A stretch of DNA of 64,000 nucleotides from a phage. The notes under the pieces are model-generated. The model searched no databases and had not been told where the DNA came from. It was given only the letters and a program-made list of their open reading frames with translations. A program made the translations under genes and the position numbers. The stretch's first letter is position 1, and every line of letters begins with the position of its first letter. The DNA is taken from sequence record PQ327946.1; one strand, given 5' to 3'. Below are positions 9,637-50,803 of the stretch, one piece after another.

Positions 9637-10014
9637 TTAATTACCAATTGTATATTTTGCTTTCAAAGTCCAGTCATCTTTCTGTTTAAAAGAGATAACA
9701 CGGAAGTTATTAGTCAGGCCAAACAGATCTTCACGAGCAGAGTCTTCAATAACAATCAATCCCCATTCTTCAAGCAACTGAGCAATCGAATCACGTCGCT
9801 GATAGTCTTCACCGTCAATATCAACCTGACGTCCGTCCATACGCAACATTTCTTTAAAGTGGACGATATAGTACTTACCTTGCTTTTGGAGGATATGACA
9901 AGACTGGTAAAGGACTTTATCTTTGTTATTAGCGATGCCCATACGAGTCAGAGTCTCTTTGACTTTCAGAAAATCTTCAGGGTTCTTCAATTTAATTTCA
10001 ATCATTTTTACCAT
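9637..10014 (-). CDS. regA: Translational repressor RegA
   Basis: 125 aa; synteny between 43 and 62; sequence resembles T4 RegA. Confidence 0.85.
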
Positions 10015-10571
10015 TCCAATGCTAATTTTTTAAATTGTTTTTGTTCTTTCACATTTTTTGTAACTTCTTTGAGAAACTCATCAGTGACCATGGCCTTCAG
10101 TTCTTTAAGGACTATTGGCAACTTGTTATTTTTTTCAAGGAGCCGCTTATACTCAGTAGCATCATTCATGTTGATTGTGTAATGTTTCATCAACAGTTTG
10201 ATAACTAGTAACTCTGAAGTGTCTTCGACTAGTTTAGCCCATTTAGAGAATCGACGACCACGTGGAATTGCCGCCATCATATAGTTGAAGTGCGCTTCAT
10301 CACTTAATTCAGAACCGACTAAGTTCATCATGTAAACGGCTGGCATACATTCTGGAAACTGGGATAATGAGTTCTCAACCATAAATTTTGAGTAGTCGAC
10401 CTGAGCAATTGACATAGATTTCTTTTCATTAATAGCATTAATGATTTTAAAGAATTCATTCTCAGGTTTTTCTTTAAACATATCAGCACATTTTTGAATC
10501 GCATCAGCGTCATTAGACTTCCATGCAATTTGGTGCTCGTTAAGCCGGACGTCATCATCGAATAAGTTCAT
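10008..10571 (-). CDS. 62: Clamp loader small subunit
   Basis: 187 aa, same length as T4 gp62; between 44 and regA. Confidence 0.85.
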
Positions 10572-10572
10572 A

Positions 10573-11535
10573 TTATTTCCAAGTCAGTTCGCAGGTCAGT
10601 TGAAGAAGCATATACATAACATGTAATTCAATATTACTTGCTAATCCATGAAACTTATTGTTTTCGCCTGCAATTTCATAAAGCGAAATAATACTTTTAC
10701 CAGGTGCAACTTGGTCATAACATTCTGAAACTAATTTATCGATGAACCATGAATAATCTGCGGCATATTTTGGAGCTAATGCACGAAGCTGTTTGATATC
10801 TTTGTTCTTCATTGCTTCGATAACATCAGAGACTGTGCCACGGTCATTAGTTACGATAGACAAAATACCCGCATCAAGAACACCTTTAGACGAGTACTGG
10901 TCTAATTGACCAATTGTGCGACGAAAGTCTGGGAAGTTCTTTTTAACCAGAGCTGCAACAACTTTCATATCAGCGATTTCGATATTTTCATTCTTACAGA
11001 TTTCAACCATACGATGAATCATTTTCTTCATCATCGAGATTTTATCTTCTTCGGTTGGACGCCCGAATTCGATAACTCGACAACGACTACGTAATGGTTC
11101 AATAATTCCATCGATGTTGTTAGCAGTAATAATAATAGAACAGTTACTAGAGAATTCTTCCATGAATGTACGAAGGTGACGTTGTGATTCGGCGAGGCCA
11201 CTACGGTCAAATTCATCGATAACAATAACTTTCGGCTTGCCTTCCATTGAGACTGAACGAGCGAATGCGGTTAACGGTCCGCGTACAAAATCAATCTTAC
11301 AATCAGAACCGTTGACGAACATCATTTCAGCGTTGATATCATTACACAATGCTTTTGCTACGGTTGTTTTACCTGTACCAGGAGAAGGAGAGTGCAAAAT
11401 AATATGAGGAAGTTTTCCTTTAGATACTAAAGACTTGAATGTTTCATGGTCATACGCTGGCAGAATACATTCGTCAATGGAAGAAGGACGATATTTCTGT
11501 TCTAGAATGTGTTCTTTGTGATTGATAGTAATCAT
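10573..11535 (-). CDS. 44: Clamp loader ATPase subunit
   Basis: 320 aa; Walker A GTGKTT and Walker B VIVIDEFD. Confidence 0.9.
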
Positions 11536-39601: not shown

Positions 39602-39910
39602 TCAATTAGAAAATAAATTTATCCAAGATTTTTCTTTAATCAAAAATGGGTCGGAATTAAACGCCATTAAACTTTGAGTGATTAATCCCTTAAATGGCCC
39701 ATCAATAAATTCCATTTTGAAATGCGGAATACTAGTCATCAACCGTGCATTAGGAGCAGTACAAAGAACCTGCTGACCTGCGAACGGACCTTTAGTCAAA
39801 CGATATCGTTTAGGTTTAAAATGGTAGATCTCGTAATTTTCTACAAGAGCCCTTTTATTGCATACTGGACTGTTATAACAATACTCAAAAACTTCAATAG
39901 TGGTCATCAT
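39602..39910 (-). CDS. Hypothetical protein
   Basis: ORF trimmed to ATG at 39910/39907. Confidence 0.4.
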   Translation of the reverse strand: MMTTIEVFEYCYNSPVCNKRALVENYEIYHFKPKRYRLTKGPFAGQQVLCTAPNARLMTSIPHFKMEFIDGPFKGLITQSLMAFNSDPFLIKEKSWINLFSN

Positions 39911-40446
39911 TGCATTCCAATCACAAAAAATTGAGGACGAGCAGTACCGCCTATGCAATATTTGCTTTTGCAGCAGTGCTGTACTGATTTAATATGGACA
40001 TTGTAAATCTTATCCATATCAGGAGCTTTAATAGGCTCGTCAATTATGTATAGAATACGAGAAAGCGTTAATCCACGGAATTTAGAACCTTCATTGCCAA
40101 TAAAACTACGGACAGAATCAGTAAATAAACGGAATCGAATATCATCGCTAGAATAACGAGAAAATTCTTTTTTAATGTTGCCAGCAGAAATTTTAGCATA
40201 AGCTGAAGTATTAGAAAGAACAATAACTGTTCCATCGTCGTGCAGCCAATTAGCAGCAAAATTAGTTACTGCAGTGGATTTACCTGATTGTCTGCCACCG
40301 TCTAAACGAAGTGTACAGTACTGCTTGAGTATGTCTTCAAATGGTGGGACATAACCGTTCTTACAAATTTCTTCTACTCTAGCATCAGAATGGTGTGTAA
40401 AAGCATTCATCAGGGATAGATAAGGTCCAGTTAAAAATGTTTTCAT
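39907..40446 (-). CDS. P-loop ATPase
   Basis: Walker A GGRQSGKST and Walker B ILYIIDEP; start at 40446 or 40494. Confidence 0.5.
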   Translation of the reverse strand: MKTFLTGPYLSLMNAFTHHSDARVEEICKNGYVPPFEDILKQYCTLRLDGGRQSGKSTAVTNFAANWLHDDGTVIVLSNTSAYAKISAGNIKKEFSRYSSDDIRFRLFTDSVRSFIGNEGSKFRGLTLSRILYIIDEPIKAPDMDKIYNVHIKSVQHCCKSKYCIGGTARPQFFVIGMQ

Positions 40447-40718
40447 TTTGTTCTCTCTAAGTTTGGGCCATTCCATGGCACATGAATTGTCCATTTCTGT
40501 ATTTACCCATTACCGCACTTGGGCTCGACCTTATTACAGGTTGGCGGGAATCCCTCATAGAATCATGAGGTCCAGCTTGTTCCCATGTTATTTGAATGTA
40601 AATATTTTTGCCTTAATACTTATACCAGTGTGGCTTCATTAAAATTTTTTCATCGAGTCATTTTACCTCTCCAAGTAATTATGATTATACTATCACAATT
40701 CTAGGAGAAAGTAAACTG

Positions 40719-41021
40719 TTATTTACCTTTAATTACTTTAGCTGCTTCGATAGCCGCTTGCTGAAGGTCATCCATAGACATACCGAATTTAGAAGCAAAG
40801 TTATCAATTTTCTTTTCAACAGCATTCAAAGGCTTGGCCTGTTTACCTTCATTAGCGCCAGGAAGAGCGAGAATACGCTCTTTGTCAATATAAAGGCTTA
40901 CAAGTTTCTTACGGTCTTTATCGGACAAATCGTGAAATGAATGGGCCTTTTTATTTATAGCGGCTTCTAATTTACCTGCACTCACTCGCGCTTCAGTAAT
41001 AAATTCTTGATATGTTTTCAT
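40719..41021 (-). CDS. Internal protein candidate with capsid targeting sequence (IPII/IPIII-like)
   Basis: 100 aa; N-terminus MKTYQEFITEA matches the T4 internal-protein targeting sequence. Confidence 0.55.
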   Translation of the reverse strand: MKTYQEFITEARVSAGKLEAAINKKAHSFHDLSDKDRKKLVSLYIDKERILALPGANEGKQAKPLNAVEKKIDNFASKFGMSMDDLQQAAIEAAKVIKGK

Positions 41022-41112: not shown

Positions 41113-41526
41113 TTAGTAAATTGATTTACCATAGTATTTGTACCAAGTAGGACGTTGAGCAATTTTTTCATCTAAACGAGCTTGACTTATCGCAATGGAC
41201 GCTTCGGTCGGGACATAATTATTACGAAATTCGGCAGGGATGTCGGAAATATCTTGGACAGTCGTGTCCTTGATTTTGAAACCACGTTTCAAGCATTCAG
41301 CGATTAGCTCGATTTGACGTAAACGTAAAAATTCGAGTTTGTCGTAAAAGAATGTTACATGACCTGTGCCTAAGATAAATGTCGGGGAGATTTTAAAATC
41401 CTTTACACGTTTACCGTTTTGAACATGTTTACGGACTGCACCAAATACGCGTGGTAATTCACGATACTCAGCCATAAGATGTTGGTCGGTCAGTTCAGAA
41501 ACAAGTGTTAAATTGATACGAGTCAT
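41113..41526 (-). CDS. denV: Endonuclease V (pyrimidine dimer DNA glycosylase)
   Basis: 137 aa from ATG at 41526; [12 protein letters not shown] matches T4 DenV. Confidence 0.9.
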
Positions 41527-49971: not shown

Positions 49972-50024
49972 TATGCCTTGCGGCAACCTTGTCGGGGTTC
50001 CACCTGCTAAGGCAAGTGTTTGTA

Positions 50025-50048
50025 CGAAACGCCGGGATTCGAACCCGG
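50025..50048 (-). other. tRNA-like T-arm/acceptor remnant
   Basis: Minus strand CCGGG-TTCGAAT-CCCGG; no convincing D or anticodon arm found by hand. Confidence 0.3.
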
Positions 50049-50283
50049 TTATTAAGCAGTTGACACTACTCAATATTTTTAAAAGGCCATATCTCGACCA
50101 TATCCGAACGTTCCGTCAAAAACGCTACTCGGCTTACGGCAAAGATATTTCCTCGAATCGATAATTCTGTGCGCCGTTTCTGCTGTGATGTAAGGGGATA
50201 TTAACGAATCATAAAGATTTATTAAGACCAGTCCTTACACAGGGAACATCAGTCCGACGACTTGCCGGTAGCGACCCGGCTTC

Positions 50284-50646: not shown

Positions 50647-50723
<77 letters not shown>

Positions 50724-50729
50724 AATATA

Positions 50730-50803
50730 TGACCCAGACCAGATTCGAACTGGTAACCTTTCCCTTATGAGGGGACTGCTGCTAACCATTGAGCTACAGG
50801 GCC
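50730..50803 (-). tRNA. tRNA with anticodon CAU (Met or lysidine-Ile), non-canonical D arm
   Basis: Acceptor GGCCCTG/CTGGGTC, T arm ACCAG-TTCGAAT-CTGGT, loop CTCATAA; 6 nt downstream of tRNA-Arg. Confidence 0.6.

Follow-up and report, generated by a model that had tools for sequence, protein, structure and literature searches.

Phages and prophages encode the non-coding RNAs ROOL and GOLLD, often near islands of transfer RNA (tRNA) genes (PMC12286853), and the tRNA cluster of phage T4 contains RNAC and RNAD, the species 1 and 2 stable RNAs, which are small, co-transcribed with the tRNAs and of unknown function (PMC9697503). Here we analyse an element that is closest in kind to these RNAs. It lies in a 64-kb stretch of T4-like myovirus DNA (64,000 nucleotides (nt) of sequence record PQ327946.1, hereafter the window), in the gap between the gene ipII and a vs.8-like gene, both of which, like the other local genes, are on the minus strand. 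The gap covers positions 40447-40718, exactly 272 nt, and holds no credible open reading frame (ORF). We are confident that it is made up of two adjoining parts, in minus-strand order a relic of the repair gene denV and a genuine, conserved structured RNA. Like ROOL and GOLLD, this RNA element is phage-encoded, non-coding, defined by covariation, without known function and recurrently found in or beside tRNA clusters. Unlike ROOL and GOLLD, which have lengths of ~580 to >800 nt and form homo-oligomeric cages, it measures from ~50 nt (core) to ~140 nt and also occurs as an mRNA leader in T-even phages; the Rfam models of ROOL and GOLLD gave no match at any examined locus. With RNAC and RNAD it shares its place, an equivalent one in the tRNA arrays of other phages. 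Kinship to T4 rnaC and rnaD was considered and rejected, for neither rnaC nor the tRNA region of T4 gives a match to our covariance model, the sequences differ and the T4 copy of the element is ~6 kb away. Neither in sequence nor in size nor by covariance model does the element resemble ROOL, GOLLD, RNAC or RNAD. The phage non-coding RNAs that accompany tRNA islands are a kind to which the element belongs by being non-coding, by its covariation and by its placement on the strand of the tRNAs, and not a homologous family.

Two further systems are informative for comparison. In the PeSL cassettes of T4-type phages, an early promoter (TTTACW-N17-TAYWAT) comes directly after a simple stem-loop; the cassettes are confined to particular phage subgroups (PMC4122927). 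Like them, the element is located where shuffled genes meet in the hyperplastic early regions, and duplicated copies of it flank an inserted gene. It differs in that it has no promoter, shows a complex covarying fold and is common to unrelated phage families; the sole promoter-like site in the gap belongs to the denV relic, 100 nt upstream of the RNA element. The second system is denV itself, the gene of T4 endonuclease V, a pyrimidine-dimer glycosylase. The 5' half of the gap is homologous to the promoter, the Shine-Dalgarno (SD) sequence, the first 8 nt and the last ~67 nt of this gene.

The structured RNA as a whole runs from about 40584 to 40447 on the minus strand, with helices P1 and P2, then a three-way junction of P3, P4 and P5, and a pseudoknot that connects the joining segment J1/2 to the 3' tail. 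In the 5' domain (40546-40584), P1 pairs GGGAA (40584-40580) with UUCCC (40550-40546) and encloses J1/2 and P2. The 5' strand of the pseudoknot, CUG (40575-40573), lies in J1/2 and pairs with CAG at 40497-40499. P2 (40570-40553, CCTCATGATTCTATGAGG) is a hairpin of 7 bp, including one G-U, in which CCUCAUG and UAUGAGG close the 4-nt loop AUUC. The three-way-junction core (40500-40550) comprises P3, where GCCA (40545-40542) pairs with U-G-GGU (40509-40505) with the first G bulged, P4 (ACCU-GUAAUA-AGGU, 40541-40528), J4/5 (CGA, 40527-40525), P5 (GCC-CAAG-UGC, 40524-40515) and J5/3 (GGUAA, 40514-40510). A T-even-specific 3' extension (40447-40496) runs from there to the start of vs.8 and contains AUGGAC (40494-40489), the hairpin GCCA-UGGAA-UGGC (40479-40467), GGCCC and a weak SD, AGAGAGAA, at ~40458-40451. 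This extension is found in 32 of 32 aligned T-even copies, is largely invariant with the general order AUGGAY, GCCA-NGGAA-UGGC hairpin, GGCCC and SD, and is absent from the rV5-like, Pylas-like and environmental copies. Its two conserved GGA motifs resemble CsrA sites, a likeness that we offer only as an idea. A covariance model of the conserved core, R1, recognizes the element with 67.3 bits (E 2e-23) and has no other match in the window. Across copies, there is hardly any variation in the junction strands C-N-A and GGUAA or at the start of the P4 loop.

The fold rests on comparative analysis, single-sequence folding being of no use here. Minimum-free-energy folding gave the leader in the window a z-score of -0.7 and folded the representatives inconsistently, and RNAalifold recovered little from a raw MAFFT alignment of mixed types. 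Several alternative pairings and likenesses were also tried and discarded. A local hairpin with the strands GAGCC(C)...GGG(Y)UY around the AAGUGCGGUAA loop is broken in the Pylas type by a G-to-A change and in the L074 type, and the same changes are compensated in P3. A GYGC:GYGC pseudoknot from the P5 region to the T-even extension was dropped since every combination is compatible and thus uninformative. Resemblances to host RNAs, namely the 16S 530 loop (GCGGUAAU) and J11/12 of RNase P (GUGCGGUAA), were rejected because only C-GGUAA is shared family-wide and the structural contexts differ. The P4 loop as a mimic of an anticodon arm or as a Tgt (UGU) site is left as speculation; the loop has 6 nt, not 7.

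Base pairs of the core were counted in 59 distinct copies aligned to the covariance model. None of the three inner pairs of P3 is unpaired in any copy: the first is AU in 29, UA in 17, CG in 8 and UG in 5, the second CG in 41, GC in 7, AU in 5, UA in 5 and GU in 1, and the third CG in 42, GC in 11 and AU in 6. The closing pair of P4 (AU 55, GC 3, CG 1) is likewise always formed, and the second pair of P5 (CG 45, UA 11, GC 2) is unpaired in a single copy. When the 3' partners were slid by 1-3 columns, pairing fell from 79.5% to 30-40% and the covariation score from 0.38 to 0.05-0.08. Since this alignment had been fitted to the model, P1 and the pseudoknot were recounted on a plain, structure-blind MAFFT alignment (A4) of 19 T-even copies. 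There the pseudoknot pair 17-113 is CG in 10, UA in 4, AU in 3 and GC in 2, with none unpaired, the pseudoknot pair 18-112 is GC in 13 and CG in 5, and the P1 pair 11-58 is GC in 10, CG in 7 and AU in 1; slid-partner controls on A4 collapse in the same way. P1 also varies between lineages with its pairing kept, as in GGGAA/UUCCC, GGGAG/CUCCC, AAAGG/CCUUU, AAAGC/GCUUU and AAAGA/UCUUU, and further in GGGG/CCCC, GGAAC/GUUCC, GAAUG/CAUUC, GAGUG/CACUC and GCGGG/CCCGC. Outside the T-evens, the pseudoknot strands, read by eye, pair with widely different and in part longer sequences: GCCAG/CUGGU (rV5), CGGA/UCCG (Pylas), UUCCGG/CCGGAA (GC-rich group), GAGGG/CCCUU and CGCCGA/UCGGUG. Compensatory changes of the pseudoknot, also by eye, distinguish ACCG/CGGU (locus L222) from ACUG/CAGU (L197), and GGGU/ACCC (L218) from GGGAG/CUCCC (L215).

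Many G-U pairs form on the gene strand only, which fits an RNA transcribed from that strand. No reading frame stays open across the 59 core homologues, the three frames having stops in 59, 20 and 19 sequences, and the core carries insertions and deletions of 1-2 nt, with the distance from CCUG to GGUAA varying accordingly. We take the 3' half of the gap to be an RNA, and neither a peptide nor a DNA palindrome. An earlier note on this DNA, made from its letters alone, had pointed to a gap of about 270 nt with only mini-ORFs and to the hairpin CCTCATGATTCTATGAGG in it. Both are as described, and the hairpin turns out to be P2 of a larger conserved pseudoknotted RNA. The suggestion in the same note that the gap may encode a small RNA is borne out for this half as a structured RNA, by the covariation in 59 copies, and does not extend to the denV half.

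Blastn searches with the gap matched its last ~100-140 nt in ~1,000 phage records, T4 included. The T4 copy (T4 62.68-62.81 kb) begins directly after the denV stop codon and ends at vs.8. In the T4 stretch that was searched with the covariance model (55-80 kb) this copy between denV and vs.8 is the only one; blastn listed two places in the T4 record, the second of which was not located. With the rV5-like phages, no relatives of T4, the identity over a 43-nt core is 95%. Further copies were sought by scanning IMG/VR and metagenomes for sequence patterns and filtering the matches with a covariance model; a loose 15-base pattern in viral contigs yielded mostly noise and four real new variants. 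The element is found in several T-even genera, two rV5-like groups, the N4-like phages Pylas and KpCHEMY26, ~46-kb phages, a 359-kb jumbo contig, GC-rich lambdoid-like contigs and other environmental contigs. In cellular genomes, scanning 185,579 species genomes of bacteria and archaea for exact 17-mers gave 13 matches, all by chance and with the rest of the motif missing, and blastn against 5,426 complete Escherichia coli genomes gave none. Rfam 15 at the gathering threshold detected only tRNAs and group I introns in the window and 20 related loci, none at the element, and at E<=10 only four chance-level matches (15-18 bits) in the 551-nt region; ARAGORN and the tRNA model RF00005 call the neighbouring tRNAs and never the element. 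The searchable literature, queried with sequence strings, gene names and phage tRNA-array RNAs, contained no description of it, although papers beyond the searched collection may hold one. The element looks like a well-supported, apparently undescribed RNA family that is present in T4 itself.

The genomic setting differs between lineages. In T-even phages the element lies between the upstream gene, whose stop codon it adjoins or overlaps, and the start of vs.8, or in some genomes is followed instead by an inserted gene for an Ip-like protein. Outside the T-evens, a tRNA is on the same strand as the element in ~30 of ~30 loci with a tRNA in the fetched DNA (~15 lineages), usually within a few hundred nt. 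Spacing can be short, with the element 17 nt before tRNA-Thr in L202 and 29-43 nt after a tRNA in L303, L222 and L198, and in L217, L218, L209, L212 and L204 it lies between tRNAs. The T-even copies are the exception to this adjacency, the window copy being ~10 kb from the tRNAs at 50.6-50.8 kb. In rV5 a sigma-70 promoter scoring 11/12 is located downstream of the element, which is therefore not the leader of the next gene there. In L223 a promoter-like site precedes the element and a terminator called by the scan follows 50 nt downstream. Pylas-type copies are closed into a module by an outer helix of 7-8 bp and lie within a 1.5-kb non-coding stretch beside tRNAs. The proteins encoded downstream have no common theme or known function: Vs.8 (phrog_1488, P-loop), an Ip-like protein or, in rV5, a 112-aa arginine-rich protein.

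A number of observations were made beside these copies. Tandem copies are present in phage SF (L003, 2040-2160 and 2500-2660), L171 (5091-5252), L175 (9019-9181) and L211 (828-963). In SF, an Ip-like gene (130 aa, N-terminus MKTYQEFITE) stands between the two copies, and the first codons after each copy are nearly alike (ATGAAAACAT and ATGAGAACAT), an arrangement that suggests insertion of a gene by recombination between element copies. Lambdoid-like contigs (L252, L237, L320 and L223) present a third genomic setting, just downstream of a lysis cassette with holin-like genes and a GH24-type lysozyme and upstream of a small conserved gene block (for example MKITDIEAF.DAQLMARIAV..., 49 aa); in three GC-rich contigs of this group a terminator can be seen by eye between cassette and element. 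The non-coding stretch of Pylas (~1.5 kb long, downstream of the tRNA array; L080, ~9860-11370; MH899585, ~66.28-67.79 kb), also found in L071, L127, L173 and L183, consists of repeated modules, each with a long stem (...CACAACAGGTAATGGCATTG ... AGTGCCATTTCCGTTGTG...) around a variable insert, and the element studied here is one such module. One of the inserts holds a tRNA-like T-arm (GCGGTTCGATTCCGC), and the stretch has no Rfam match. A segment of ~90 nt beside the Pylas array (L080, ~10995-11086) recurs with 75-97% identity in unannotated parts of widely differing phages, among them N4-like (EC1-UPM, E20), T1-like (DS8, Sa179lw) and Vi01-like phages, HK620, and Aeromonas and Cronobacter phages; it may be another mobile non-coding element. 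In rV5-like phages (L007, ~1425-1455, and the flanks of L030, L032, L037 and L167), a motif CCC(U/A)UAGAGGGCUUGA(U/A)AGUGC, composed of a hairpin CCCUUAGAGGG and a conserved tail, occurs on both sides of the element. In rV5-like and environmental loci, group I introns occur a few kb or less from both the element and the tRNA arrays (L030, 3115-3418; L217, 4112-4333).

The 5' half of the gap in the minus-strand direction has a different origin. Its stretch from GTTTAC through ATGACTCG can be aligned to the sequence preceding the phage's own intact denV, and the next ~60 nt to the 3' end of that gene. The comparison is clearest with Tequatrovirus G9062 (L227), which has an intact, annotated denV/glycosylase gene of 138 aa between e (lysozyme) and vs.8, with no ipII intervening. 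A global alignment to G9062 shows near-identity on both sides of one 347-nt gap with GACTCG at both edges; the deletion ends fall within this repeat (ATGACTCG/TATT... and ...CAACGACTCG/ATGAAAA), which in the window is at 40659-40654. As a result, 347 of the 417 nt of denV are gone and the first 8 coding bases are fused to the last ~67. The 3'-terminal remnant (40588-40654, letters GATGAAAAAATT...TTTACATTCAAATAA) is no longer in frame and has undergone one more change, TAC to TAA; its original stop is at 40590-40588. Read in the old frame it gives DEKILMKPHWYKY, a stop and GKNIYIQI, as compared with ...DEKILMKPHWYKYYGKNIYI and the stop in G9062 denV. The same scar is present in the phages ZQ3, HX01, PHB12 and SF, and is therefore not an assembly error. 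By these alignments, positions ~40716-40588 are an internally deleted second copy of denV, produced by a microhomology-mediated deletion. The remnant is of the G9062-type allele and the intact denV upstream of ipII has a T4-like C-terminus; we therefore infer that an ancestor had two denV copies of different origin flanking ipII, one of which decayed. The order of denV, ipII and ipIII differs among T4, G9062, W143, phi25-307 and this phage, the locus having been reshuffled repeatedly.

This origin accounts for the signals that the earlier note had seen here. The hexamers GTTTAC (40716-40711) and TATAAT (40689-40684) are present within the early-promoter relic (40684-40716), but at 21 nt they are more widely spaced than a sigma-70 or T4 early promoter allows. 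In the homologous register one reads instead TTTACT (40715-40710), N17 and TAGTAT (40692-40687), which scores 8/12 and was matched to TTTACT-N17-TACTAT upstream of the intact denV; a generic promoter scan made no call at the relic. The strong SD and the three-codon ORF are there as reported (40650-40672), with GGAGAGG at 40672-40666 and ATG ACT CGA TGA at 40661-40650. The mini-ORF encodes MTR, codons 1-3 of denV, which in this phage and in G9062 starts with MTRINLT, and it meets TGA after three codons because the 347-nt deletion is not a multiple of 3; the old frame has an additional stop. Promoter, SD and start all align to the denV upstream region, and the locus is near-identical to that of G9062 denV, so that these features are more than chance. 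They are denV relics and not a leader-peptide device, and the idea of a leader peptide is not supported, the mini-ORF being a deletion scar with no frame open across the RNA homologues. That the gap might be a decayed gene is correct for the half with promoter, SD and mini-ORF. Alignment to relatives does reveal a conserved protein gene at this place, the intact denV that they carry, but in this phage the gene has been destroyed. In deposited genomes, the denV scar and the RNA are overlaid with annotated 'hypothetical proteins' of 25-33 aa, in part on the opposite strand (HX01 gp066 and gp067, L002 1959-2119; G9062_00126, L227 1206-1307), and these are almost certainly spurious.

Over 1.2 kb around the gap the identity to Escherichia phage vB_EcoM-ZQ3 (Mosigvirus, JS09 group) is 100%. 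Upstream, ipII (internal protein II; 40719-41021, minus strand) is an ORF of 100 aa with its stop codon at 40721-40719; its product matches phrog_7857 (internal virion protein) with E 4.5e-55, and homologues in related records are labelled IpII or internal virion protein. Downstream, the vs.8-like gene (39907-40446, minus strand, ATG at 40446-40444) encodes a 179-aa P-loop protein that matches phrog_1488 (function unknown) with E 4e-78 and gives weak P-loop or terminase-N-like Pfam matches, all below the cut-off; its homologues are named vs.8 in RB32 and, in one related record, after the T4 'regB-denV intergenic region'. The intact denV (41113-41526, minus strand, 137 aa) lies upstream of ipII, 0.4 kb upstream of the gap, looks functional and has a counterpart annotated as endonuclease V in the identical phage ZQ3. 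Elsewhere in the window, ARAGORN calls a 95-nt 'tRNA-???' with a 4-base anticodon (ttta) at 50022-50116 on the minus strand, ~530 nt from the tRNA-Arg/tRNA-Met pair (50647-50803), a call without support from the Rfam tRNA model at the gathering threshold. Calls with a 4-base anticodon (atcc) also occur in rV5-like tRNA arrays (L007, 2582-2680; L219, 270-367).

Sequence comparison shows the identity of both parts, a denV scar and a widely shared RNA, together with the fold of the latter, whose mechanism is inferred. We propose that the RNA would be an autonomous structured module that acts as a folded RNA through its near-invariant junction, by binding a conserved factor of host or phage. It would exist in most phages as a discrete RNA of ~100-180 nt that is either released from the transcripts of tRNA operons by the enzymes of tRNA processing or transcribed as a unit with its own promoter and terminator. 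In the phage studied here, the RNA of ~40584-40447 would be transcribed together with the early genes, with the pseudoknot locking the fold. In the T-evens, the module would have been recruited into the 5' leader of vs.8, where the 3' extension, with its two GGA motifs, one of them in a hairpin loop, and the SD behind them, could plausibly couple the fold to translation or processing of vs.8. That the RNA stands alone is suggested by its adjacency to tRNAs on the same strand, the promoter downstream of it in rV5, the promoter and terminator unit of L223 and the outer helix of Pylas. This stand-alone, factor-binding mechanism, as deduced from sequence, is put forward tentatively. For the explanation as a whole, a denV relic followed by a conserved folded RNA that acts as a factor-binding stand-alone module, we would put the probability at roughly 0.55.

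Several points weigh against this explanation. The function was deduced from anatomy and genomic context. Throughout hundreds of T-even genomes, a start codon follows 10-25 nt after the end of the element, and the duplicated copies of SF each precede a gene, which gives the element the look of a cis-acting leader. A time-course transcriptome of T4 names only RNAC and RNAD as small RNAs of this phage (PMC9697503); the T4 element is either scarce as a discrete species or was never looked for. The terminator scan made no call for the by-eye terminators that follow the element in L222 and L197. As for the fold, the pseudoknot has only 3 bp in this phage, and a crude per-sequence shuffle test of it was not significant, so that counting at aligned positions was used instead. 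P4 and most of P5 are nearly invariant, with few compensatory cases to support them. Finally, the copies are related by descent, so that shuffle controls overstate the significance and are not probabilities; the slid-partner controls are fairer.

The main rival is a cis-regulatory leader, a riboswitch-like or protein-responsive aptamer in which the three-way junction would sense a ligand and P3 would then compete with a pairing of its GGG to a downstream CCC, a competition that controls translation of vs.8 in the T-evens or termination in other phages. Near-invariant junction nucleotides amid freely covarying helices are the classic pattern of an aptamer, and the compact three-way junction with invariant unpaired nucleotides and a long-range pseudoknot recalls riboswitch aptamers such as THF-I, as does the position before an SD or before a terminator. 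One core would be joined to differing downstream platforms, namely the SD-proximal extension of the T-evens, the scan-called terminator of L223 and the by-eye terminators of L222 and L197. The 3' strand of P3 in the T-evens, UGGGU or GGGGU, has a possible alternative partner in the invariant GGCCC that lies 30-40 nt further downstream; likewise, as read from the sequence, GGGUUU of L197 and L222 can pair with AAGCCC of the terminator. Aptamer-like conservation, varied platforms and this possible alternative pairing, together with the gene that directly follows each SF copy, make the leader the strongest competitor. However, the GGG:CCC pairing uses invariant bases and so has no support from covariation, and two of the three terminators are those that the scan did not call. 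Copies between tRNAs, with spacers of 17-43 nt, or before a promoter (rV5) have nothing to regulate, and the genes downstream (vs.8, Ip-like genes, the 112-aa basic protein, tRNAs) share no theme. Unlike known riboswitches, the element has no sequence or model similarity to any riboswitch class of Rfam 15, many of its copies have no downstream gene, and the gene context points to no ligand. We regard this leader as unlikely. A self-cleaving ribozyme or processing signal, which would free the tRNAs in arrays and split the denV/ipII messages from those of vs.8 in the T-evens, is still less probable. The element is small (~90-140 nt) and pseudoknotted, with a few invariant nucleotides in its junction; it is carried by phages, immediately next to tRNAs, and in the T-evens it begins at or within the stop codon of the upstream gene. 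Its strand order, P1-PK-P2-P1'-[domain]-PK' (PK, pseudoknot strand), is that of the nested double pseudoknot of ribozymes like that of hepatitis delta virus (HDV), which measure roughly 70-140 nt as well. HDV-like 'theta' ribozymes reportedly occur in gut phages, adjoining phage tRNAs. In the element, however, the conserved nucleotides sit in the counterpart of P4, a domain dispensable in HDV-like ribozymes. In the rV5 copy the 3' strand of P3 runs straight into the pseudoknot strand, without any J4/2 nucleotides and thus without the catalytic C; P1.1 is missing, P1 opens with G-C or A-U instead of the G-U wobble at its base, and P2, which would be HDV P3/L3, is absent from Pylas-type copies. 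No Rfam ribozyme family matches at E<=10, and no cleavage site can be nominated.

Two explanations remain. Conservation at the DNA level, as the boundary of a PeSL-like recombination cassette or the target of a homing endonuclease that promotes gene shuffling in a hyperplastic region, would suit the plasticity of the locus, where denV, ipII, ipIII and Ip-like genes change in order and number between close relatives. It would also suit the tandem copies of L171, L175 and L211 and the copies of SF, which flank an inserted Ip-like gene and are followed by shared first codons of different genes (ATGAAAACAT and ATGAGAACAT). Nevertheless, the compensatory G-U pairs would be A-C mismatches on the opposite strand, the strand is fixed relative to the tRNAs in ~30 loci, and the element is present in unrelated phage families that share no flanks. 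PeSLs are simple stem-loops with an early promoter (PMC4122927), and the element has none; recombination between repeats of the element is more plausibly a by-product. This makes a DNA-level role very improbable. We attach almost no weight to a small protein or leader peptide, be it the three-codon ORF, a 33-aa ORF at 40457-40558 (minus strand) or the small ORFs annotated in HX01 and G9062. It is true that the SD is strong and correctly spaced before the ATG at 40661 and that some deposited genomes annotate ORFs of 25-33 aa here. Yet the three-codon ORF consists of denV codons 1-3 and a frameshifted stop made by the deletion, every frame is interrupted by stops among the 59 core homologues, the CCUG-to-GGUAA distance shifts by 1-2 nt, and the substitutions are pairwise-compensatory and not biased to synonymous changes.

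The denV half of the gap, a factor-binding RNA in the other half being our preferred explanation, is ordinary, yet it shows that patterns of promoter, SD and mini-ORF in phage gaps can be deletion scars, and it documents the microhomology-mediated deletion of a duplicated repair gene. The RNA half has wider implications. T4 is among the best-studied genomes, and still the ~140 nt between denV and vs.8 have apparently only ever been annotated as spurious small ORFs, while a near-invariant 50-nt core is common to T4, rV5-like, N4-like, lambdoid-like and many uncultured phages. It is possible, if doubtful, that the element represents a new class of functional RNA in T4, either a riboswitch whose junction binds a small molecule or a tRNA-related ligand, or a new class of self-cleaving ribozyme that processes phage tRNA operons and early mRNAs, with horizontal spread among Straboviridae, Vequintavirinae, Schitoviridae, lambdoid-like and uncultured phages. 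The element would add a small, tractable member to the poorly understood RNAs of phage tRNA islands, ROOL, GOLLD, RNAC and RNAD. It is attractive for experiments, as T4 genetics is easy, the RNA is short enough for structure determination and the invariant junction points to a specific partner. Once identified, this partner might bring to light a novel mode of phage interference with the RNA or translation machinery of the host, or a new riboswitch or ribozyme class.

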